From Clostridia bacterium (GTDB lineage Bacteria; Bacillota; Clostridia; Oscillospirales; CAG-272): DNA of 64,000 bases. The stretch lies in contig JAFURQ010000027.1 of NCBI GenBank assembly GCA_017471825.1, positions 59,478-123,477 on the forward strand, given 5' to 3'. Below are positions 2,944 to 45,767 of this stretch, piece by piece. The notes beneath the pieces are model-generated. The model was not told the DNA's origin and searched no databases. It saw only the letters and a list, made by a program, of their open reading frames with translations. The first letter of the stretch is position 1. Every line of letters begins with the position of its first letter. The translations under genes and the position numbers were made by a program.

Positions 2944-5052
2944 ATGGTTCTGATAATCGCGGAAAAGCCGAGCCTTGCGCGTAATATCGTGGCTGGCATA
3001 GGTAAAATGGATAAAAAGGACGGCTATTTTATCAATTCCGATTATATAGTCAGCTGGGCGTTCGGTCACCTGTTTTCGCTCGTCGACGTCGAAACCTATA
3101 CCGGCACCACCGGCACAGGCTGGACCCTTGACACACTGCCTTGCTTTCCCGAAAAATTCAAGTTCGAGCTTAAACGCGGAAATGATAAGAAGGTCGATTC
3201 CGGAGTAAAAAAGCAGTTCTCCGTTATAGAAAAGCTCATCAACCGTCCCGACGTCGATACTGTTGTAAATGCAGGAGACGCGGACCGCGAGGGTGAGATT
3301 ATAGTAAGGCTTTGTATACAAAATTCGCTTAAATCTCCAAAGGAGCAAAAGCGTCTTTGGCTCCCTGACCAGACTCCCGAAACCGTCAGAAAGGCGCTTG
3401 CTGAAATGAAGGACGAGAGTGAGTATAACAGTCTTGCGGAGGAGGGCTTTGCCCGAACCTATATTGACTGGCTGTACGGCGTTAATTTGACACGGTATGC
3501 CACTATTCGCTCGGGACAGCTTCTCAGAGTGGGCAGAGTTATTGTTCCGATAGTCCGCGCAATATACGATAGGGATATAGAAATCAGAAATTTCAAGCCC
3601 GAAATATACTACGCCATACAATCAAGCGCAAAGACTCACGGGCAAAAAATTGACCTTGTAAGTAAACATAAGTTTGCAAAAGACGAGAAAAACAAGGCGG
3701 AAGAGCTCGCAACGCTTTACAATAATACGGGCGCTGTCGTATCTGCCGTTGAAAATAAAAAGGATACGATTTTCCCCGGAAAGCTTTACTCCTTGTCAAC
3801 TCTGCAAAACGTGCTTGGAAAAAAATATAAAATGAGCATGGCTGACAGCCTGAAAATTATACAAAAGCTCTACGAGGAGGGATACCTCACATATCCGAGA
3901 ACCAACTCGGAATACCTTGCAACTGCAGAAAAGGACAAAATGCGCTCGATAATCGCCAACGTTTCAAAGCTTGGATATCCCGTGCGCTTCAAGGACTCGA
4001 AATCAATATTCGATGACTCCAAAATCGAATCGCACTCTGCGCTTACCCCGACATACAAAATCCCCGACGTCAACAAGCTTGATGAAAAGGAAAAGCAGGT
4101 TTATTCCACCGTTTTCCGCAGATTTGTAGCGGTTTTCTGCGCCGAGGAGTGTATTGCGAGCAAGAGCGAGATACGGATAAAGGTTGGCGAGCTCGAGGAA
4201 TTTTCTCTCAAGGGTACGGTAATTCTTGAGCCCGGATGGACGAAATACGATGACTATTCCGGCAAGGATAAGGTCCTGCCCAAGCTTACAGTAGGGGAGT
4301 CGGTTAATATCGATTTCCAACCTACCGAAAAGGAAACCACACCGCCAAAGCATTACACTATCGAGACTCTCAATAAGTACCTTAAGAATCCTTTTAAGGA
4401 CGACAAGGCGAAGGCGCGCGAGCTTGAGGAGGCAGGCGAGGTCGACGATGCCGACGATTACCGCGCAATATTTGAAGGACTCGAGCTCGGCACCGAGGCT
4501 ACCCGTACGGGAATTATAGACAACGCCAGGAAAAGCGGATATATAAATCTCAAAAAGGATGTTTACACTATACTTGGCGGCGGTGAATTTCTTATAGAAT
4601 CGCTTGGACGCCTTGGTATCGCTATGGACAAGTATAAAACCAGCGAGATGGGCAAAGCGCTTAAAAAGGTTTTCCATGGAGAGATGAGCGCTGAAGAGAG
4701 TGTGAAGCTTGCAGAGCGTGAGATTCTCGAAATCTTCAAAAACGGAGGAACGGCGGTTGCTGCGGCGCCCGTACCGACAGGCTCGCTCGGTGAGATAGTC
4801 GGTCCTTGCCCCCTGTGCGGCAAGAACGTTATCAGAGGAAGACAGGGCTACGGATGTATGGGTTACAAGGAGGGGTGCGATTTCAGAATCGGGCTCACCA
4901 TTTGCAAAAAGACTGTACCGATAAATCAAATCCGCGCGCTTCTTGCGACGGGCACGACAGCAAAGCTTCGCGGTTTCATTTCAAAAACGGGAAAAAGCTT
5001 TGACGGAAAGCTGATAATAAAGGATGGAAAGGTTGTTTTTGATTTCAGTTGA
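2944..5052 (+). CDS. topB: DNA topoisomerase III with a C-terminal zinc-finger region
   Basis: MVLIIAEKPSLARNI is the Toprim N-terminus. YLTYPRTNSEYL contains the active-site Tyr region. The C-terminus has CPLCGKNV...GYGCMGYKEGCDF. GGAGG lies upstream of the start. Confidence 0.85.
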   Translation: MVLIIAEKPSLARNIVAGIGKMDKKDGYFINSDYIVSWAFGHLFSLVDVETYTGTTGTGWTLDTLPCFPEKFKFELKRGNDKKVDSGVKKQFSVIEKLINRPDVDTVVNAGDADREGEIIVRLCIQNSLKSPKEQKRLWLPDQTPETVRKALAEMKDESEYNSLAEEGFARTYIDWLYGVNLTRYATIRSGQLLRVGRVIVPIVRAIYDRDIEIRNFKPEIYYAIQSSAKTHGQKIDLVSKHKFAKDEKNKAEELATLYNNTGAVVSAVENKKDTIFPGKLYSLSTLQNVLGKKYKMSMADSLKIIQKLYEEGYLTYPRTNSEYLATAEKDKMRSIIANVSKLGYPVRFKDSKSIFDDSKIESHSALTPTYKIPDVNKLDEKEKQVYSTVFRRFVAVFCAEECIASKSEIRIKVGELEEFSLKGTVILEPGWTKYDDYSGKDKVLPKLTVGESVNIDFQPTEKETTPPKHYTIETLNKYLKNPFKDDKAKARELEEAGEVDDADDYRAIFEGLELGTEATRTGIIDNARKSGYINLKKDVYTILGGGEFLIESLGRLGIAMDKYKTSEMGKALKKVFHGEMSAEESVKLAEREILEIFKNGGTAVAAAPVPTGSLGEIVGPCPLCGKNVIRGRQGYGCMGYKEGCDFRIGLTICKKTVPINQIRALLATGTTAKLRGFISKTGKSFDGKLIIKDGKVVFDFS

Positions 5053-10262: not shown

Positions 10263-10487
10263 TTATTTTTCCACTTGCTCACTGTCGCACGGCGGATTTT
10301 CATTTTGTGTTATTGCCTCGTCTTGCGCATCCTCAGAGCTTTCTTGTATTTCGCTCATATATCCGGCGGTGATAATACCGGCAGGCAATGCGACTATTGC
10401 AATTCCGAGCACGGAAGAAATCATTGTAATAACCAACGATAAAAATGCACTTCTTGAACCTTCAATAAAAGCATTATTGAGAATACA
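10263..10487 (-). pseudogene. 3' remnant of an ion-transport (K+ channel-like) gene: last TM helix and acidic tail only
   Basis: The reverse frame reads ...SLVITMISSVLGIAIVALPAGIITAGYMSEIQE...EQVEK*, which resembles the post-pore S6 segment of bacterial ion transporters. The frame is closed by TAG at 10488-10490 and no pore or N-terminal part is present. The plus-strand ORF 10255..10545 is a shadow. Confidence 0.45.
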
Positions 10488-10503
10488 CTATTTTTCAATA
10501 TCC

Positions 10504-11238
10504 TTACCAATCGTTTTCTTCTTTAACAACAAATTTCCATCTTAGTTTTTCAGCTCTAATACTGCTATATTTTTTAATATGGTCAAAATCGACCTCATCA
10601 CTGTCTACCCAATAAACCATATCATCTTTAAATATTACACTGGAGGAATATATTCTGTTATATGGTCCAAAGGCAAAGTCGATACAGATACCGCCTTCAA
10701 ATTCTAAAATAGCATCAAACGCTGCTTGTGAGTTGAATTTTAATTGTACTGTAGCTTCTTCTTCGCAACTATAAGGATTTGATTTAGCTGTAATTGAAAT
10801 TAAATACCAATCATGAAATCCACCGGTGTGATTCATCATATCTTCTGCTTCATCTTCGTTAGTTATCTCATTCCATTTGTCAGGATCTATATTAGCATTC
10901 ATTTCTTTAGCTAAAGTTATATATTTTTCATCTACTTGATTAGATTGTTCAATAGCTTTAAATACACTGACGTCTTCAATTAACCAGGGATAACCGGCAC
11001 AACTATCGATTTCGCCCATATTAATTTTTAACTTTGACTTTCTAACAAAACCATCTTCATGTTCATTCATTAAACCAATTTGTCTATGACCGTCACATTT
11101 TGCTGAAAAATAAGCAACAATATCAAACTTTTCATCAATTGGATCATACACAACGTAATGAGGCATATAATCATACTTAAAGTAAGCGAATACATACGAA
11201 TAATAAACTTTACCTTTATACTCTATTCTTGCATACAT
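10504..11238 (-). CDS. hypothetical protein in an AT-rich island; the C-terminal half looks like a polymorphic-toxin immunity protein (speculative)
   Basis: The start was set at MYARIEYK (ATG at 11238) because it is preceded by AAGGAGAG. The longer ORF (to 11355) merely reads through a relic of the rumA 3' end. No family was recognised. Confidence 0.55.
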   Translation of the reverse strand: MYARIEYKGKVYYSYVFAYFKYDYMPHYVVYDPIDEKFDIVAYFSAKCDGHRQIGLMNEHEDGFVRKSKLKINMGEIDSCAGYPWLIEDVSVFKAIEQSNQVDEKYITLAKEMNANIDPDKWNEITNEDEAEDMMNHTGGFHDWYLISITAKSNPYSCEEEATVQLKFNSQAAFDAILEFEGGICIDFAFGPYNRIYSSSVIFKDDMVYWVDSDEVDFDHIKKYSSIRAEKLRWKFVVKEENDW

Positions 11239-11310
11239 AACATTTACGCTCTCCTTGTAAAGAATTTCGCCTGCGGGCGAAAGCGATATTATTTTGCTTT
11301 GCTCAATATA

Positions 11311-11355
11311 GTTTGTCTGACGCGTCAGACAAACGACACTCTCGACGTGGGTCAA
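11311..11355 (-). repeat. displaced copy of the rumA-family 3' end (encodes HVESVVCL), embedded in a 24-nt perfect palindrome
   Basis: Positions 11327-11349 (agacaaacgacactctcgacgtg) match 12872-12894 at 21 of 23 nt, and both encode HVESVVCL. The palindrome gtttgtctgacg/cgtcagacaaac spans 11311-11334. Confidence 0.6.
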
Positions 11356-11358
11356 GAC

Positions 11359-11416
11359 GCCAAAAGGTATATTTTTAGGCTAAAAACAGGGGTTGTAAAG
11401 CCAAAAGGTATATTTT
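11359..11416. repeat. 17-nt perfect direct repeat (gccaaaaggtatatttt) in two copies, 41 bp apart
   Basis: The copies at 11359-11375 and 11400-11416 were read directly. Confidence 0.8.
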
Positions 11417-11473
11417 ATTCTCTCTTTTCCCATTCTTTTGAACTGCGACTTAATTATTTATTTGATCGTTTTG

Positions 11474-12208
11474 TCAATCGCCGATAAACTTCCAATATTT
11501 TTTAGTTATAGCTTCTCTTATCTTATCTTCAAGCATAGCGGCGTGATCGTAATCTCGGCTCTCGTTCCATTCTTGACTACTGTAGCTTGCCGCCATTCTG
11601 CGATACTCCGCCCTTATCACTTCTCTTTGCTCCTCTGTCAGATAGCGAACAGGAGTTTTGCGTATGGTTTCCACATCGCACCCAAGCTCCTCGCCTCTAG
11701 CGCGCATTGTGCTATAATAGTTATCAAGAAGCACATTTTCGTCAATGGGATTTGTAATATCTAAGCTTTTGAGCATTTCGTTTTCACAGGGTGTCATATA
11801 TTCAAACGCGCTTATGTCCGTATAGCTTTTCGAAAAGCTCTCGCCGCGATGTAGAATTCTTTTTGTATCTCCATTCTTTATGTTTGGTGGAAAGTAGGCA
11901 AAGCTACCACTATCCAAGCCATGCTGTCCCCAGCCATAACCAAAAAATTGAAAATCCGGAAATGAATACTTACGGATACATACGTTTTTATCGTTTAGCA
12001 TTTCAATAAAAAGCGACTTTGCCTCGGGGCTTATGGCAACCTTTTCTACGCCGTTAACCTCCGTTTGGTATACAATCGAGTTATAGTTGCCGAATTGCTT
12101 TTTGCCCGCAACAGTGAAAATATATTTGCTATCCTCTTTTGCGGAATCGAAAACGAGCATATCCTCGCCGTTTTCGTCTTTATCAAGGTAAATTTTTATG
12201 TAGATCAT
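11474..12208 (-). CDS. hypothetical protein (244 aa), AT-rich island
   Basis: This is a long ORF with coding-like composition. No family was recognised. Confidence 0.55.
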   Translation of the reverse strand: MIYIKIYLDKDENGEDMLVFDSAKEDSKYIFTVAGKKQFGNYNSIVYQTEVNGVEKVAISPEAKSLFIEMLNDKNVCIRKYSFPDFQFFGYGWGQHGLDSGSFAYFPPNIKNGDTKRILHRGESFSKSYTDISAFEYMTPCENEMLKSLDITNPIDENVLLDNYYSTMRARGEELGCDVETIRKTPVRYLTEEQREVIRAEYRRMAASYSSQEWNESRDYDHAAMLEDKIREAITKKYWKFIGD

Positions 12209-12283
12209 AGTTATTCCTCTCTGTATGTTAAAGATACCGCTATAAAATGAACTTTTGAGTTTTGCTCAAAAGCAATATTGTCC

Positions 12284-12637
12284 TTAACTGTTTTCCTTTG
12301 CAGTGGTGATAGATTTAACTAACATACGGCGGATGATTCCACATTCTTGCAAAAGTTCTTTTGAAATTTGTTCGCTTATTGCATTTGAGCCGACGAGCAT
12401 TTCAATCCAATATTCTGTTTCACCGCACTCTTTTAGTGCAATATGGAATTTGTTTATAAAGTCTGCTTTGCTTACAGCATAGTTAGCCTCATGAATATTT
12501 GCTCCAATAGAGGTTGCACTCCTCACGATTTGATTTACAAGAACACCTCTGCCTTTGCGAGTGTCAACCTCGTCACAGACAGCGATTATGTGTAGAGCAA
12601 GTGCCTTTGCTCTTGTGCGTAATTCGGAATCTTTCAT
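12284..12637 (-). CDS. four-helix-bundle protein (23S rRNA intervening-sequence protein / DGR Avd-like family)
   Basis: The 117-aa protein carries ...QIVRSATSIGANIHEANYAVSKADFINKFHIALKECGETEYWIEML..., a typical TIGR02436/PF05635 pattern. Confidence 0.8.
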   Translation of the reverse strand: MKDSELRTRAKALALHIIAVCDEVDTRKGRGVLVNQIVRSATSIGANIHEANYAVSKADFINKFHIALKECGETEYWIEMLVGSNAISEQISKELLQECGIIRRMLVKSITTAKENS

Positions 12638-12659
12638 ATTCTTCCCCTTTGTGTGGTTG

Positions 12660-12850
12660 GTGAAGTTTTGCTCCTTCGTCGCAAAGTGAAGTTACTCACT
12701 TCGTTCGTAGTGAAGTTGTTCGCTTTGCTCACAGTGAAGTTAAGTTCGCCTCAAAATTACTTCTCACTTGCGCCGCAAGCGACGCAAACTTCACTTCGGC
12801 GGTAGCCGAAACTTCACTGCTTTGCAACTTCACTCGCCGCAGGCGAACTT
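12660..12850. repeat. motif array: GTGAAGT four times in direct orientation (24-26 nt period), then ACTTCAC three times (plus one variant), each separated by a different short hairpin
   Basis: GTGAAGT occurs at 12660, 12686, 12710 and 12734. ACTTCAC occurs at 12788, 12811 and 12827, with the variant acttctcac at 12769. The intervening hairpins are ttcggc-ggta-gccgaa, tgc-ttt-gca and tcgcc-gca-ggcga. A 9-bp pairing aagttcgcc (12742)/ggcgaactt (12842) could close the domain. Confidence 0.7.
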
Positions 12851-14229
12851 AGTTGTCGAGTCTGTCGTTTGAGACAAACGACAGACTCGACGTGTCCTGT
12901 CGCAGGAAAAAGGTCGAAGGGTGTAACTGTGCCGGGGGTATAGCCGAGGTCGGCAAAGAGGCGGCAGTCACGGGCAAGAGTCGTCGGATTGCAGGAGATA
13001 TAGACAATTCGTGAGGGGGAAAGAGATGCCGCAAAGCTTACAAGACGGGCATCGCAGCCCGCACGTGGCGGATCCAGAATTACAACGTCGGGGCGGATGG
13101 TGCGGCCAAGCTCGCGCTCGGCGCGTTCAAGGAGCTTTTCGGTGTCTTTGGCGTCACCCGTGTAAAATTTTGCGTGCTTTATATCGTTGGCGGCGGCGTT
13201 TTCGGTGGCGCATTTTACCGCGCTGTCAATGATTTCTATGCCGATAAGCTCGCCGCACTTGTCAGCCATTGAAAGACCGATTGAGCCTGCGCCGCAGAAA
13301 AGGTCGAGCACGGTGTCAGAGCTCTTTGGAGCGGCGAGCTCGCGTGCCTTGGCGTACAGCATATCCGCCGCCGCGCGGTTTACCTGATAAAACGAGGGGG
13401 CGGTTATCTTCAGCCTTACACCGCCGAGGGTGTCGAAAATGTAATCCCTGCCGAAAAGCGTGCGCCATCCGTTGCCGAGAATTACGTTCGTTGCCGCTGT
13501 GTTGGTATTCAGAAGTATTCCTACTATTTCAGGGTATCTCTCGTTCATTATCCGAACAAGCTCACGCTCGCAGGGAATTGAATCACCGTTTATAACGAGA
13601 GTCAAAAGAACCTCTCGGCTGATTTCGCCGCGGCGTAAATATACGTGCCGCAGGAGCCCTGTGCCGCTCTCTTCATCGTATACCGAAACAGAGTGCTTTT
13701 TGAAGAAGGTGGCAAGCGTGTCAAGAATTTCGCCGAAAATTTCGGGCGCAAGAGGGCAGTGGCGCGCCTCGGTTACCCTGTGCGATTTCGGCGCGTAAAA
13801 GCCTATTACGTAATTGCCATCCTTGCCGATAGCGATGGGGTACTGCGCCTTGTTCCTGTAGCCGACAACCTCGGGGGAGGGAACAGCGGGTGCGATTGCC
13901 ACCTCGCGCAGTCCCTCGTGAGCGAATGCCTCGCGCACGGTTTTCTCCTTCAGCTTCAGCTCATGCTCGTAAGAGATGCTTTTGTATGCACAGCTTTTGC
14001 AAGCCGATATATCGCATCTTCCGTCATGGCGCAAGGGGGATTTTTCTATATATTTCTCTACACGCCCTATGGCGTATGATTTATTTACCTTGATAATTCT
14101 CGAGTCTATAACGTCGCCGCTGATAGCATCCGAAACAAATACTATCTGCCCCTCGTGTCTGCCGACACCGAAGCCGAGATTTGTTATGTCGTTTATTTCG
14201 AGTCTGATAATATCGTTCTTTTTAAGCAT
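12814..14229 (-). CDS. 23S rRNA (uracil-5-)-methyltransferase, RumA/TrmA family (TRAM plus Fe-S plus SAM-methyltransferase domains)
   Basis: There is a TRAM-like N-terminus and a Cys cluster CDISACKSCAYKS. DLFCGAGSIGL, DPPRAGC and YISCNPTTLARD are class-I methyltransferase motifs. The C-terminal tail after HVESVVCL runs into the repeat array. Confidence 0.85.
   Translation of the reverse strand: MLKKNDIIRLEINDITNLGFGVGRHEGQIVFVSDAISGDVIDSRIIKVNKSYAIGRVEKYIEKSPLRHDGRCDISACKSCAYKSISYEHELKLKEKTVREAFAHEGLREVAIAPAVPSPEVVGYRNKAQYPIAIGKDGNYVIGFYAPKSHRVTEARHCPLAPEIFGEILDTLATFFKKHSVSVYDEESGTGLLRHVYLRRGEISREVLLTLVINGDSIPCERELVRIMNERYPEIVGILLNTNTAATNVILGNGWRTLFGRDYIFDTLGGVRLKITAPSFYQVNRAAADMLYAKARELAAPKSSDTVLDLFCGAGSIGLSMADKCGELIGIEIIDSAVKCATENAAANDIKHAKFYTGDAKDTEKLLERAERELGRTIRPDVVILDPPRAGCDARLVSFAASLSPSRIVYISCNPTTLARDCRLFADLGYTPGTVTPFDLFPATGHVESVVCLKRQTRQLSSPAASEVAKQ
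12855..12891. repeat. 16-bp perfect inverted repeat overlapping the last conserved codons of the rumA-family gene
   Basis: The sequence gtcgagtctgtcgttt gagac aaacgacagactcgac was read directly. Confidence 0.85.
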
Positions 14230-14293
14230 TTTTATCCTTTCTGCCTACCCGTGTGAAAAATATCGGCAGATTTAGTAAATAATTATTTACAAA

Positions 14294-15133
14294 TCAAATA
14301 AATCCTTCGCCGAATTTCGAGCGGTATTCCTTTGGCGTCATACCAAATGCCGCCTTGAAGGATTTGGTAAAATACGAGGCATCGGTAAAGCCGCATTCCT
14401 CGGCTATTTCCGCGATTGATTTGTCAGTCAGCTCGAGCATTCTCTTTGCCGCCTTGAAGCGATAGGCAATTATGTACTGCCTCAGCGTTATCCCCTTTTT
14501 TTCCTTCAGCATACGGCTGACGTAGAAGGGGTGATATCCGAATATAGCGCCGATTTCGGTGTTGGAAATCTCCTGGTGCGCGTTTTCCCTTATGTAGCTG
14601 TCGAGAGCCTCGACCATTCGCGCAGGCAGGGCATTTTCGCTCTGCGTTTCCGCGAGCTTCAGAAGCAAGAGCTTCAGCTCCGCTGAAACTTGCGCGCGCC
14701 ACTCGCCCTCAGCCGACGTCGCAACGTTGCACATATTGATTATTTTGTCGCGCTCTCCCTCTGCATCCTCGAGCAAGAGCCACTTGTCAAACGGCTCGAT
14801 ATCGGCAAATACGTGTGCCCTCGCGACGTCAAATTCCTCTGCCGTGCTCGGCATAATTTTCTCTATCGGCTCGGGCATTTCAGCAGTTATATCGAAGGCG
14901 AAAACGCAAGCGCGAAGATATTTGCCCTTTAGCTGATATGCGGTGCCTGCCGGGATGTAGAGAAGGTTTCCTGCTCCGAGGTGGAATTTTTTCTCATTAT
15001 CTATCCCAACCGTAACGTCGCCCGATATCAAATATATCAGCCTCGCATCGTAAGCGCGGCACTTTTTTGTGTTTGTTATTTTTTCATAAATTCCCGCTTC
15101 TCTGACAACGGGATTAAGACGTCTGAAATCCAT
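14294..15133 (-). CDS. AraC-family transcriptional regulator (cupin N-domain plus HTH)
   Basis: The C-terminal SIAEIAEECGFTDASYFTKSFKAAFGMTPKEYR is an AraC HTH. Confidence 0.8.
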   Translation of the reverse strand: MDFRRLNPVVREAGIYEKITNTKKCRAYDARLIYLISGDVTVGIDNEKKFHLGAGNLLYIPAGTAYQLKGKYLRACVFAFDITAEMPEPIEKIMPSTAEEFDVARAHVFADIEPFDKWLLLEDAEGERDKIINMCNVATSAEGEWRAQVSAELKLLLLKLAETQSENALPARMVEALDSYIRENAHQEISNTEIGAIFGYHPFYVSRMLKEKKGITLRQYIIAYRFKAAKRMLELTDKSIAEIAEECGFTDASYFTKSFKAAFGMTPKEYRSKFGEGFI

Positions 15134-15292
15134 AAAAGCTCCGTTTCTGCTGTCAAAATATCATACTCCATACTAATTTTAACACTAAAAACCGAAAAAA
15201 GCAATGCTATTTGCGTCTTTTTTGTTTTTAACCACTTTACAAAATGAATCCCTTGTGATAAAATATTCTCAATTCATTAAAAGAGGCGTCCT

Positions 15293-16300
15293 ATGGAGAA
15301 GATAAATACCAAAAATAACGTTAAGCTTTTTGCTTACGCGGGAATAATATTCGTGGTGCTCGTCTGGGGCTTGGTGCCGCCAACGGTATCCTACATATAT
15401 GATTTTTACTCGGGTGCAGTTTACAGCGCCGCGACCTCTCTTATTGCGGCGGTATCGCTTTTGCTCCTCTCGGTAAAAAAGCTTGATTTACTGACGAATG
15501 ATATGCTCAAAATCGCTATCCCCACGGGAATCTTCAACGGCCTTGCCGACCTCGTGCAAAAAATCGGTCTGCAGTACACCACCCCCACCAAATACGCGTT
15601 TCTTGAAAACCTCTCCTGCGTTGTCGTACCGATACTCCTTTTCATCCTTATCAGAAAAAGGCCCGGAGTTCTTACGATAATTGCAAGCATAGTCTGCCTT
15701 GCAGGCTCGTTTGTGCTCACGGGCATGAATTTTTCCGACGGTGCGGCATCCTTTGGCATAGGAGAAATCCTTTGCGCCCTCGCAGGCTGCTTCTATGGCG
15801 TCAATATCGCCATAACCGGTACGTATGCCAAAAAATTCTACGCTCCCCTCTACGTAATGGTGCAAATCTGGGTGCGCTTCGTTATTTCGAGCGCAACTGC
15901 GGTTGTCCTCAATTTCATAAATATCAACGGTCAACCGATAGAGCAGTTCAAATTTTCCTTTGATATATGGAATCTTCTCGTGCTTTTGGCGCTCGGACTC
16001 GTTTCCAACACGCTCTGCTGGACGATAAGAACCAACGCTATGAAGCACATCTCGCCCAACGCTGTCGCAATCATTATGCCGTTTGCCGCCGTTGTCACAG
16101 GCGTGGCTTCAGTAGCGCTCGGTATGGATGAGCTGACGCCCAATCTCTTGATAGGTGCGGGGCTCGGACTCGCCGCCGCCCTGATGTGCAGTTTTGACGA
16201 TATACTTGAAGGGAAGAAAGCGAATAAAAATAAAAGCTCGGATTCTGACGTTTCAGATTCGACAAACGCAGTTGAAGAAGCAACCGAAAAGATAAGCTAA
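15293..16300 (+). CDS. DMT-superfamily (EamA-like) transporter
   Basis: It has roughly 10 TM helices in two EamA-like halves and is divergent from the AraC regulator. Confidence 0.75.
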   Translation: MEKINTKNNVKLFAYAGIIFVVLVWGLVPPTVSYIYDFYSGAVYSAATSLIAAVSLLLLSVKKLDLLTNDMLKIAIPTGIFNGLADLVQKIGLQYTTPTKYAFLENLSCVVVPILLFILIRKRPGVLTIIASIVCLAGSFVLTGMNFSDGAASFGIGEILCALAGCFYGVNIAITGTYAKKFYAPLYVMVQIWVRFVISSATAVVLNFININGQPIEQFKFSFDIWNLLVLLALGLVSNTLCWTIRTNAMKHISPNAVAIIMPFAAVVTGVASVALGMDELTPNLLIGAGLGLAAALMCSFDDILEGKKANKNKSSDSDVSDSTNAVEEATEKIS

Positions 16301-16302
16301 CA

Positions 16303-16330
16303 AAAAAGCGCCGATGAGGCGCTTTTTTGT
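16303..16330 (+). terminator. rho-independent terminator
   Basis: The stem aagcgcc gatg aggcgctt is followed by TTTTTGTTT. Confidence 0.7.
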
Positions 16331-16363
16331 TTGTAATTAGCGACGAAGAACTCGTGGGAGAAT

Positions 16364-16407
16364 CTGCCCCGTCCTACGAGGCTTCTCACAGAGAAGCGAC
16401 GGGGCAG
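16364..16407. repeat. nested hairpin (10-bp outer stem, 7-bp inner stem) at the 3' end of the 4HB pseudogene
   Basis: The outer stem is ctgccccgtc ... gacggggcag and the inner stem is gcttctc aca gagaagc. Confidence 0.8.
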
Positions 16408-16769
16408 GGATTCGGCCTCCACTTTAGTTTCTTTTCTATCGTGATACAAGATGAGGTAAGCATTCTTTTTATTCTGCCGCAAAGATTACGGAGCGACTTG
16501 AAGGTTTGCTCGTCAATTGCACCCGATGCAAAGATAAGCTTGAGCCAAGACTCTGTTTCTGCACATTCTTTCCTTGCAATTTCGAGCTTGGAATGCATAT
16601 CTGCAAGGCTCTGGGGATATTGCGCCTCGGTAATATTGGCAAATACGCTTGACTAGGATTTCTTGATTTGAAAAACGGTGTTGGAGTCAATTTTGTGCTC
16701 ACTGCAAAGCTTGACAATTTTAACTGCCAATTCTTCGCTATACTCTAAAAGCAAATTGCGTTTTGCCAT
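16386..16769 (-). pseudogene. four-helix-bundle (Avd-like / 23S IVS protein) gene interrupted by an in-frame TAG
   Basis: From the ATG at 16769 the translation reads MAKRNLLLEYSEELAVKIVKLCSEHKIDSNTVFQIKKS*SSVFANITEAQYPQSLADMHSKLEIARKECAETESWLKLI.... The TAG at 16653-16655 sits where the family normally has Gly (G-[TS]-S-[IV]-x-A-N-I). AGGAGAAG lies upstream of the start. Confidence 0.7.
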
Positions 16770-16792
16770 CGTTCTTCTCCTATCCGTCCTAA

Positions 16793-16885
16793 ATCACGGC
16801 AGAGCCGTGATGCCATACGCCCGATGGGCGATTCCATACAATTCGCGAGAGCGAATTGATGCCATGCACAAGACCTTTGGTCTTG
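16793..16885. repeat. motif-hairpin array: GAT(G/T)CCAT(A/G)C three times, alternating with four different short hairpins
   Basis: The hairpins are at 16793-16811 (8 bp), 16819-16829, 16840-16857 (7 bp) and 16869-16885 (7 bp). The linker motifs are at 16809-16818, 16830-16839 and 16858-16867. Confidence 0.7.
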
Positions 16886-16893
16886 AATAAAAA

Positions 16894-16923
16894 AACCTAA
16901 ACCGAAACAATTCGATTTAGGTT
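16894..16923. terminator. bidirectional terminator-like hairpin
   Basis: The 8-bp stem aacctaaa...tttaggtt is flanked by an A-run upstream and a T-run downstream. Confidence 0.5.
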
Positions 16924-16928
16924 GTTTT

Positions 16929-17038
16929 TGGCGCAGAGGGAGGGATTCGATTCTCGCGCGAACTGCGCGCTCGGTCTTCCACGGTCGCGGACGTCCACAG
17001 GAAGTCCGCTCTACACCGTTTCCCCTTCGAATCCCTCC
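16929..17038 (-). other. unassigned 110-nt GC-rich element closed by a perfect 12-bp inverted repeat and ending in ...TCGAATCCCTCCCTCTGCGCCA (tRNA-3'-end-like)
   Basis: ggagggattcga (16939-16950) pairs with tcgaatccctcc (17027-17038). There is an internal 6-bp hairpin gcggac/gtccgc. The minus-sense 3' end resembles a T-loop, acceptor and CCA, but no cloverleaf can be drawn. Confidence 0.3.
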
Positions 17039-17049
17039 TTTTACAAAGC

Positions 17050-17077
17050 AAAAACGTCCGAGCTTTTGCTCGGACGT
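17050..17077 (-). terminator. rho-independent terminator after tRNA-Glu
   Basis: The 10-bp stem acgtccgagc tttt gctcggacgt is followed by a T-run on the minus strand. Confidence 0.7.
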
Positions 17078-17084
17078 CTTTACT

Positions 17085-17159
17085 TGGTGACCCGTGGGAG
17101 AATCGAACTCCCGTTTCAGCCTTGAGAGGGCCGTGTCTTAGCCGCTTGACCAACGGGCC
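17085..17159 (-). tRNA. tRNA-Glu (anticodon CUC)
   Basis: The minus-sense sequence GGCCCGTTGGTCAAGCGGCTAAGACACGGCCCTCTCAAGGCTGAAACGGGAGTTCGATTCTCCCACGGGTCACCA folds into a cloverleaf. The anticodon loop is CT-CTC-AA, the T-loop is TTCGATT, and CCA is encoded. Confidence 0.9.
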
Positions 17160-17178
17160 GTGTCATATTCGCTCGATT

Positions 17179-17207
17179 ATTCTACCACAGTTTTTTTCGT
17201 TTGTCAA
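17179..17207 (-). promoter_or_regulatory. sigma-A type promoter for tRNA-Glu
   Basis: On the minus strand TTGACA is followed by a 17-nt spacer and TAGAAT, which ends about 20 nt upstream of the tRNA 5' end. Confidence 0.55.
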
Positions 17208-17549
17208 GTGTTTTTGGATAACTTTTCAGAAAATTCTCACTTTTGTCTTTTTCGCTTGACGACAGGCAAAATGTAGAAGATGTACGCTTTTATGTATTAT
17301 AAATATAAGGATACTCGGCGAAATGTCTTTTTGCACAAAAAACCTGCGCCAAAATGTTCATTTTGCTACTTTTTTTACAGAAAAGTTAAAAAAATGTGAA
17401 AAACGTTATTGACTTTCATTGTTATATAGAGTAAACTCGACTTACAAGGTTTTGAAACGTGGGCGCTATGGGGAAGCGCCTAAAGCGTTTTTTTGCCCCT
17501 TGTGCAAAATGAATTCTAAAAATTTTTATATGAAAGGAATTTCACTCCA

Positions 17550-45507: not shown

Positions 45508-45767
45508 ATAATAGCTTGAATGCGATGAAGCGGGAGGTGGCTACCCTTGAGGTAGGGAATTTCCGTGGAGCAGTCCGATATATTAACCGGGCGAAAAGAG
45601 AAGTTACGCCTATCCGGGCGTTCTGTGTTCGTTGTCGGTTCCGATAGTCACTGCGGAGACTGTCTGAACTGATTTTGTAAGGGCACAAAAGAAACGCACG
45701 GAGCTGTGTAAAACCTCTTGCCCTTCTTAAAACGGCTTAAGCAATACGTAAAAAGGAGGAAATTATA

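Follow-up and report, generated by a model that had tools for sequence, protein, structure and literature searches.

The window analysed here is a stretch of 64,000 nt of contig JAFURQ010000027.1 from a Clostridia bacterium, and the subject is a short array of hairpins (locus 2) that lies directly upstream of 4HB#2, a gene of the TIGR02436/PF05635 type for an Avd-like four-helix-bundle (4HB) protein. On the minus strand at 16796-16885, four perfect hairpins (H0 to H3) alternate with three exact GYATGGMATC linkers. The features below were read from the sequence, and the half as a whole is collinear with the full arrays of relatives as far as H3 (alignment A2):

16796..16885, minus strand: 5' (forward) half of the array, hairpins H0-H3
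16885-16869, minus strand: hairpin H0, caagacc-aaa-ggtcttg
16867-16858, minus strand: linker GCATGGCATC
16857-16840, minus strand: hairpin H1, aattcgc-tctc-gcgaatt
16839-16830, minus strand: linker GTATGGAATC
16829-16819, minus strand: hairpin H2, gccc-atc-gggc
16818-16809, minus strand: linker GTATGGCATC
16808-16796, minus strand: hairpin H3, acggc-tct-gccgt
between H3 and the ATG of 4HB#2 (16769), minus strand: gatttaggacggataGGAGaagaacg

This pattern is real and non-random. Exact matches to GYATGGMATC in the 64-kb window are confined to the three array linkers, and a strict detector (three perfect hairpins of ≥4 bp and two equal-length linkers of 8-11 nt, ≤2 nt apart) returned a single match in the window, at 16795-16858, and none in 30 shuffles. 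The RNA fold predicted for 16770-16925 reaches −59.1 kcal/mol (z = −6.2), a stability matched by none of 200 shuffles. The hairpins and linkers had been pointed out in an earlier note, made from the letters alone; its array coordinates, stem lengths and linker consensus agree with the sequence, where the stems are 4-7 bp, as does the gene start that it placed at 16769, although the open reading frame (ORF) behind that start carries an in-frame TAG at 16655-16653. Searches of 10300-17400 and 16700-17100 against Rfam gave no match for locus 2, either at gathering thresholds or at E ≤ 10.

For the repaired 4HB#2 protein, ~1,500 homologues were found at 83-94% identity, mostly on contigs of <1.5 kb. 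A total of 80 genome loci (designated, like all loci below, by L and a number) were fetched, all from metagenome-assembled genomes labelled Clostridia/Eubacteriales (some Oscillospiraceae), many of them from ruminant gut, together with five metagenome-contig loci, and the layout was compared over 330 nt upstream of each 4HB gene. The order in these relatives is a tRNA 3' end, an intrinsic terminator, H0 (for example CAAGCC-GCA-GGCTTG), forward units, a centre, reverse units, GATTnnnnAC, a ribosome-binding site (RBS) and the ATG, with an intact element taking up ~200-230 nt. The forward half consists of three units, each a GYATGGMATY linker plus a hairpin; the centre is GTAT followed by a pyrimidine-rich stretch and ends in the reverse complement of the 5' arm and loop of H0; and the reverse half consists of 3-11 units, each the reverse-complement linker RATTCCATRC plus a hairpin. 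The 5' arm and loop of H0 pair with the end of the centre as a closing stem, termed P1, the same 5' strand alternatively forming the local hairpin H0. The Shine-Dalgarno (SD) sequence lies ~10-20 nt past the last linker.

The earlier note had proposed surveying the sequence upstream of many 4HB genes, and linker-plus-hairpin arrays were indeed found there: under a strict rule (three or more forward linkers, then two or more reverse ones), 69 of the 77 homologous 4HB loci with enough upstream sequence carry one, and the eight exceptions include cuts by contig ends, one array split by an insertion sequence and copies with degenerate linkers. In L010 (1-260) and L071 (2314-2470) the reverse half has grown to 8-11 units via tandem duplication of blocks of one to two units; unit number appears to change through slippage or unequal exchange. 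In L047 (580-2460), an insertion sequence with a transposase-like ORF of 516 aa sits inside the reverse half, splitting it into AATTCCAT and ...TTCCATAC. P1 was also considered as the inverted repeats of an invertible DNA switch, which was rejected, as the flipped orientation occurs in no locus.

Against this layout, the copy in the window is seen to have lost half of the element, and the gene behind it is damaged as well:

16770..16808, minus strand: deletion junction, degenerate last linker and RBS (alignment A2 with L009, L025, L019 and L012)
16386..16769, minus strand: 4HB#2, TIGR02436/PF05635 four-helix-bundle gene, most simply a pseudogene (ORFs, profile scores and sequences of relatives)

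The window copy is collinear with full arrays to H3 and restarts at the 3' arm of the last hairpin, so that hairpin acggctctgccgt is followed immediately by GATTTAGGAC, a GGAG RBS and the ATG at 16769; alignment A2 places ~118 nt of the relatives in this gap, namely the pyrimidine-rich centre, the 3' strand of P1 and all RATTCCATRC units. With its stop codon masked, 4HB#2 scores 76.3 bits against TIGR02436 (cut-off 24) and 72.4 bits against PF05635 (cut-off 33.8), and its ORF is 45% identical to 4HB#1, the intact 4HB gene of the window (12284-12637). Codon 39 (16653-16655) is TAG where relatives have TCG or TCC. The relatives end in ...KLKQG* followed by a terminator, whereas 4HB#2 is truncated at its 3' end and reads into a neighbouring hairpin element; with the in-frame TAG, and without the normal C-terminus and terminator, it is not an intact ORF. 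A single in-frame TAG was also seen in an unrelated 4HB gene at ~4952-4954 (minus strand) of L043, where it replaces CAG (TCG in the window), and both genes are most simply read as pseudogenes. The window copy appears to be an internal-deletion derivative beside a pseudogene, that is, a relic. Since half of the array is lost and the gene reads as a pseudogene, this copy is probably inert, and most likely so under the interpretation preferred below and under every rival alike; on its own it is of little interest. The leader architecture described in the earlier note is genuine as a hairpin-and-linker design and incomplete as an element, for intact copies add a reverse-complement-linker half and a closing stem.

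A second array of the same plan precedes 4HB#1:

12660..12855, minus strand: sister array, locus 1 (sequence, Gut-1 match, conserved in L089-L094)

Here three GTGAAGTT linkers and one variant are followed by four AACTTCAC linkers and then by the RBS of 4HB#1, and P1 pairs AAGTTCGCC (12842-12850) with GGCGAACTT (12742-12750). The 5' half of locus 1 aligns end to end with the Gut-1 RNA motif of Rfam (RF01706), at 31.8 bits against a gathering score of 50. Gut-1 was reported by Weinberg et al. in 2010 as an orphan, free-standing small RNA, with no gene association or function (PMC2864571). Its defining arrangement, three hairpins of free sequence with a constant single-stranded linker, is present in locus 2 as in locus 1. 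The Gut-1 threshold was not reached by type-1, type-2 and type-3 arrays or by GTGAAGTT arrays (L009, L014, L074, L062 and L089-L091), and it was passed by L124, L155 and L204 at 59-78 bits (L124 and L155 at 77 bits). In the flanks of the published Gut-1 alignment, and in L124 and L155, the order is again a tRNA end, a terminator, P1, three GUGAAAU or GUGAUAUU units, a centre and reverse-complement linkers, of which the Rfam model spans the first half only, without P1. Gut-1 as modelled is thus the first half of this element class. The locus-2 stretch very probably belongs to the same class, as the first half of a copy of such a modular linker-plus-hairpin element that has decayed. The earlier note had compared locus 2 with the array at 12660-12850 and seen one design in both, which is borne out by the common plan; its count of two independent occurrences is not, both loci belonging to a single element class that includes Gut-1.

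At least six linker dialects were distinguished, and the linker shows inverted symmetry in all six. GTGAAGTT is used in locus 1 and L089-L094; GTATGGMATC and GTATGTAATC/GATTACATAC occur in 4HB#2 clades, the latter in the more distant ones; GTATATCATC/GATGATATAC occurs in L049, L061 and L062; and GTTATGA/TCATAAC stands ahead of a divergent 4HB gene, of a fourth clade, in L043. Pattern scans of viral contigs with the Gut-1 linker yielded chance matches for the most part, real arrays being confined to L124, L155 and L204; with GATGATATAC, no array that has hairpin spacers turned up. A restriction-site reading of the linkers was rejected on inspection of the sequences, as GANTC or GCATC is not common to all dialects.

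The structure of the element was assessed across loci. Between like linkers, 184 distinct spacers were found, which are palindromes of 8-23 nt, most commonly with a 5-bp stem and a 3-nt loop; the outer four opposed stem positions are Watson-Crick in 92% of cases versus 29% after shuffling. The mean Watson-Crick helix of P1 is 9.4 bp, versus 6.4 bp in cross-locus controls, and at least nine covarying types of P1 were seen, such as CAAGACCGAAGG/CCTTCGGTCTTG, CAAGCCGCAGG/CCTGCGGCTTG, CAAACTGAAAGT/ACTTTCAGTTTG and CAATCCGAAGGATT/AATCCTTCGGATTG. In a MAFFT alignment of 64 sequences, where 12 register-stable pairs could be scored since hairpin lengths differ, 94.9% of cells were paired (77% in shuffles), 101 cells carried changes on both sides (22.5 in shuffles) and the covariation score was 0.389, compared with 0.084 in shuffles (0 of 500 reaching 0.389) and ≤0.064 with slid partners, figures that overstate independence as the aligned sequences are related. 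The stems are nearly pure Watson-Crick, with 2.3% G-T and 1.4% A-C (a G-U versus A-C count of 24 versus 16); P1 is extended by G-U in 32 loci and by A-C in 14, a weak sense-strand signal. The loops are mildly T-rich on the sense strand, and no enrichment of GNRA or UUCG was found in them. The hairpins need to fold and tolerate any sequence, the linkers of 8-10 nt are constant and complementary between the halves, and the element is strand-oriented.

Such features bear on one rival explanation, a protein-independent RNA switch, in which the forward linkers, single-stranded in a junction closed by P1, would pair with the reverse linkers, and the choice between H0 and P1 would decide whether the pyrimidine-rich centre masks the SD sequence, tuning translation of the following gene. 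H0 and P1, which exclude each other, are both conserved; among the minimum-free-energy folds of 12 test loci, half contain P1 and several pair the centre with the SD sequence, which is predicted as paired in 69% of loci; and complementary linkers in the two halves are the only feature found in every dialect, Gut-1 without 4HB genes included. However, many arrays precede a promoter and an unrelated gene, or a convergent gene, and so have no SD sequence to regulate, and in many loci the centre is very short. A conserved C-U mismatch between GUAUGGCAUC and GAUUCCAUAC, the 3-11 reverse units facing a fixed three forward units and the very small number of G-U pairs fit such a switch no better, and it is considered improbable.

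The connection between arrays and 4HB genes was followed in both directions. Starting from the genes, an array of the gene's own dialect is essentially always present in the clades examined: in addition to the homologues of 4HB#2, all 4HB#1-type loci examined and the divergent 4HB gene of L043 have arrays, each with its own linker. The dialect tracks the clade of the adjacent 4HB gene even where two clades share a contig, as in the window and in L043, and the two arrays found in the 64-kb window are those directly upstream of its only two 4HB genes. Starting from the arrays, a metagenome pattern scan for three reverse linkers returned 80 hits (L239-L318), among which 11 are true arrays; the other 69 are unrelated tandem repeats without hairpin spacers, many of them from the Ga0307508 and Ga0307509 samples. 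A 4HB gene follows only 2 of the 10 arrays with room downstream, while in L240, L284, L285 and L298 the array is followed by an ordinary promoter and an unrelated gene, and canonical Gut-1 copies also occur without a 4HB gene. With 4HB genes behind so few of these arrays and behind none of the canonical Gut-1 copies, a role as leader in cis is not the whole story. The functional link put forward in the earlier note accordingly stands in one direction, the arrays being tied to 4HB genes, and fails in the other, as they are not specific 4HB leaders. Behind the 4HB cassette at L061 (640-900 and 2380-2520), L062 (2860-3100), L049 (2930-3040) and L052 (3000-3168), further arrays were seen that are of other dialects (GATGATATAC, GTGAAATATT) or are forward-only or reverse-only; downstream of them come ordinary promoters with unrelated genes, or a convergent gene.

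The arrays that lack a 4HB gene (8 of the 10) are what would be expected if the element were an intergenic repeat comparable to repetitive extragenic palindromes (REP), bacterial interspersed mosaic elements (BIME) or BOX, selfish or architectural, residing behind the terminators of highly transcribed genes; its tie to 4HB would then not be specific, the 4HB genes merely using the same insertion-prone spots. The arrays do lie always just past terminators, sometimes between convergent genes, they are modular with variable copy number and perfect palindromes, and assemblies tend to break at them (many short contigs, and matches at contig ends). REP, BIME and BOX, however, conserve their palindromic units, whereas here these vary and the linkers alone are constant. 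Chance co-location hardly explains arrays immediately 5' of the RBS in essentially every 4HB gene, in four clades and in a clade-specific dialect, nor does it account well for the placement of both arrays of the window. Little credence is given to this explanation.

The surroundings of locus 2 are built of further units, which on the minus strand come in the following order:

17085..17159, minus strand: tRNA-Glu(ctc), the anchor gene (ARAGORN, Rfam)
16929..17082, minus strand: extra mini-cassette of 155 nt (sequence)
16887..16923, minus strand: intrinsic terminator of the repeated unit, its T-run abutting H0 (terminator scan)
16351..16414, minus strand: distal junction element (sequence, strain comparison)

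A promoter scan placed a near-consensus TTGACA-17-TAGAAT promoter at 17179-17207, upstream of tRNA-Glu, and found no sigma-70 promoter inside the arrays of L009, L074 and the window. Of the 60 loci scanned, 53 have a same-strand tRNA gene ahead of the 4HB gene, in most cases ending ~250-450 nt before the 4HB start. The anchor tRNAs are of at least eight species (Glu-ctc, Glu-ttc, Met, Val, Ala, Lys, Cys and Ser), the 4HB gene being 83-94% identical throughout. In L009, L019 and L025 the counterpart of the 16887..16923 terminator comes directly after tRNA-Glu. As terminator, array and gene were duplicated jointly in L061 and L064, the terminator is part of the repeated unit.

The mini-cassette has a terminator of its own (~17045-17082) and a 110-nt structure closed by GGAGGGATTCGA/TCGAATCCCTCC, with a tRNA-like end ...CTCTGCGCCA (...GCGCCA). 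It is placed exactly between the CCA of tRNA-Glu and the terminator of the 4HB unit, is absent in L009 (where CCA is followed by AAAACAACCTAAATCG) and matched nothing in Rfam or ARAGORN. On the far side of the gene, 16351-16414 consists of a stem, CTGCCCCGTC/GACGGGGCAG, around a stem-loop resembling an anticodon arm, with a degenerate tRNA-Glu 3' end, GATTCTCCCACGAG, behind it. The strain of L233, whose EamA protein is 96% identical, has this element at 2650-2740, and homology stops there; a similar element precedes a cassette in L029. Since L233 shares 16351-16414 but differs beyond it, the element looks like a cassette junction at the edge of a strain-variable segment, which turns over between strains. 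A search for empty sites via EamA homologues provided this one close strain (96%, on a 2.8-kb contig), the next relatives being 60% identical and non-syntenic; no excision products or empty sites were observed. A conserved right-end motif, GCCGACTTGT-loop-ACAAGCACACGCCACGGTGCCA, was also noted 30-90 nt past the 4HB stop, after the terminator of the gene and whatever the upstream tRNA (L004, L005, L009, L012, L014, L017, L018, L023, L028, L029, L034 and L042); it could fold as an acceptor-like stem ending in CCA.

For 4HB#1 the anchor is a protein gene. Its homologues number ~7,800, and in all three further genomes examined the gene comes immediately after one for an RNA m5U-methyltransferase and has the same array. 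The methyltransferase gene has its 3' end (HVESVVCL...) repeated after the first cassette, both in the window (12870-12893 and 11330-11352), where the repeat is fused to the start of a 283-aa ORF (10504-11355), and in L091 (2243-2290 and 3571-3620), where the second cassette comprises the methyltransferase 3'-end copy, a forward-only array and a GNAT gene.

The 4HB#2 cassette in the window is bounded by the tRNA gene and an EamA gene. Within ~6 kb on either side of the gene at 15293-16300 (hereafter the neighbourhood), Pfam annotation gave NERD, GNAT, methyltransferase, AraC, EamA and hydrolase, and no recombinase or reverse transcriptase. PADLOC and PHROGs returned no matches for either 4HB protein or for the neighbours of 244 aa and 283 aa, and no relatives of 4HB#2 were found in 2.9 million viral contigs; identification of the 4HB proteins as defence or phage proteins and carriage of 4HB#2 by phages were rejected on these grounds. 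Elsewhere in the window, an ordinary S10-Clostridia ribosomal-protein leader was recognized at 45517-45594 (RF03136, 48.8 bits), which fits the origin from Clostridia.

This context is the ground for a further rival, in which the array, acting in cis as DNA, serves the mobility of small cassettes that lack a recombinase. The sets of linkers, folded as single-stranded DNA in the manner of integron attC sites or bound as double-stranded DNA in the manner of transposon ends or attP arms, would be the substrate of a recombinase encoded in trans, and terminator, array, gene and tRNA-like end together would be inserted after tRNA genes or into the 3' ends of m5U-methyltransferase genes. Tandem units are indeed parted by tRNA 3'-end-like fragments ending in CCA in L061, L062 and L064, and by the methyltransferase 3'-end copies in L091 and in the window. 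The exact insertion of the mini-cassette after CCA, the divergence of the 96%-identical strain past the junction at 16414 and the presence of so similar a gene behind at least eight tRNA species point the same way, as do the near-pure Watson-Crick palindromes, the inverted symmetry of the linker in every dialect, the growth and shrinkage of unit number (L010, L071) and the persistence of arrays without an adjacent gene. Against mobility, the neighbourhood holds no integrase, transposase or reverse transcriptase, nor are these enzymes among the called genes shown for related loci, and the viral contigs hold no relatives. The repeated tRNA and methyltransferase ends, lying outside the array and beyond the terminator, would be the more natural crossover sites; the orientation to the upstream gene is identical in every locus examined; and binding as double-stranded DNA leaves the variable palindromic spacers unexplained. 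Mobility of this kind is judged rather unlikely.

The reading preferred here, tentatively and at somewhat less than even confidence, is that the element works as a folded single strand, most simply as a transcript that starts at the strong tRNA promoter and reads through the terminator. All that the hairpins would have to do is fold and serve as spacers, and the constant 8-10 nt linkers would be what is read, the likeliest reader being the oligomeric, Avd-like 4HB protein encoded next to them, which would bind several linkers at once. Beside its own gene the protein would cover the adjacent RBS (autoregulation), and copies of its dialect that lack a 4HB gene would be its targets in trans. A 4HB oligomer is favoured as the reader because each clade has its own dialect and because the closest solved relative, 2RLD, has five chains in its entry; Avd-type bundles are likewise pentameric nucleic-acid binders (Avd, PDB 4DWL, as cited in PMC10053308).

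Several observations weigh against this reading, beginning with the scarcity of 4HB genes behind the arrays found by pattern and behind canonical Gut-1 copies. The match of dialect to clade is equally expected from co-inheritance of linked sequences. Near-pure Watson-Crick stems with mostly 3-nt loops resemble DNA palindromes more than typical structured RNA, and the array lies downstream of a strong terminator, so that transcript levels may be low. Furthermore, one RNA-binding protein would not recognize both a linker and its reverse complement, and the linker symmetry better fits binding of double-stranded DNA or pairing of linker with linker. A broader proposal, on which we would place only small odds, is that terminators, arrays and tRNA-like CCA ends form an undescribed family of miniature cassettes of gut Clostridia behind tRNA or m5U-methyltransferase genes, with a PF05635 4HB protein recognizing the dialect of its own element. 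If true, it would provide a first function for stand-alone 4HB proteins, explain Gut-1 and offer a clue to the route by which intervening sequences with a 4HB gene arrive in genes for structured RNAs. The data point to a possible mobile cassette system in uncultured gut Clostridia.

Among known systems, Gut-1 is the closest. It came from gut metagenomes and has the same alternation of free-sequence hairpins with a constant short linker (GUGAAAU in Gut-1), yet the locus-2 linker GYAUGGMAUC is unrelated in sequence, and the element described here heads 4HB genes. The 2010 discovery report was the only paper on Gut-1 found in the library searched, and the few papers retrieved on the PF05635/TIGR02436 family describe no function for stand-alone members outside diversity-generating retroelements (DGRs), mentioning the family as Avd-like or as an annotation label. 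In sequence, the locus is a new variant of an orphan design that was already known; relative to the literature found, the novelty lies in the extended architecture, the set of linker dialects, the fixed anchors and the association with 4HB genes. Gut-1, an orphan Rfam family since 2010, is now seen to cover only one half of a larger element, whose other half is inverted and whose closing stem covaries, and stand-alone PF05635/TIGR02436 proteins are abundant and uncharacterized.

Resemblance to other repeat systems is partial. CRISPR repeats are 24-48 nt long and alternate with unique spacers of comparable length, whereas here the constant part is 8-10 nt and the variable part a palindrome of 8-23 nt, and no cas gene is annotated in the neighbourhood. 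In type III toxin-antitoxin systems (ToxIN), too, short repeats form an array just ahead of the gene for a small protein, and a terminator is part of the locus; unlike here, however, the ToxI repeats are near-identical and 34-36 nt long and the toxin is an endoribonuclease, while in this element the units differ, the terminator precedes the array and PADLOC gave no match. Integron cassettes share the small, promoter-less single-gene units in tandem at a fixed anchor, and their attC sites share the conservation of structure over sequence and the inverted-repeat boxes. In contrast to integrons, no IntI is encoded in the neighbourhood and there are no R''/L''/L'/R' boxes or GTTRRRY core; moreover, the array precedes the gene and follows a terminator, and the anchors are the 3' ends of tRNA or methyltransferase genes.

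In Enterobacteria and Pseudomonas, REP/BIME elements and their RAYT genes form REPtrons, in which palindromes with conserved linkers make up mosaic arrays behind gene 3' ends; many copies are protein-less, and in the few that flank a cognate protein gene, protein family and repeat type vary together. The present arrays are similar in that they lie behind gene 3' ends and terminators, with many protein-less copies and few beside a protein gene that matches the repeat type. They differ in that the palindromes are variable and the linkers constant (184 distinct palindromes in place of one conserved palindrome of ~35 nt) and in that the protein is a helical bundle of 118 aa without HUH or tyrosine nuclease motifs. 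For the protein itself the nearest parallel is Avd of DGRs (PF05635-like, PDB 4DWL), a nucleic-acid-binding pentamer of the homologous 4HB family that works with a structured RNA encoded next to it. Unlike in DGRs, no RVT domain was found among the called genes of the neighbourhood and of the other loci shown, template and variable repeats not having been specifically searched. Under the broader proposal above, the 4HB factor would be to its element what RAYT is to REPs, or Avd to the DGR RNA.

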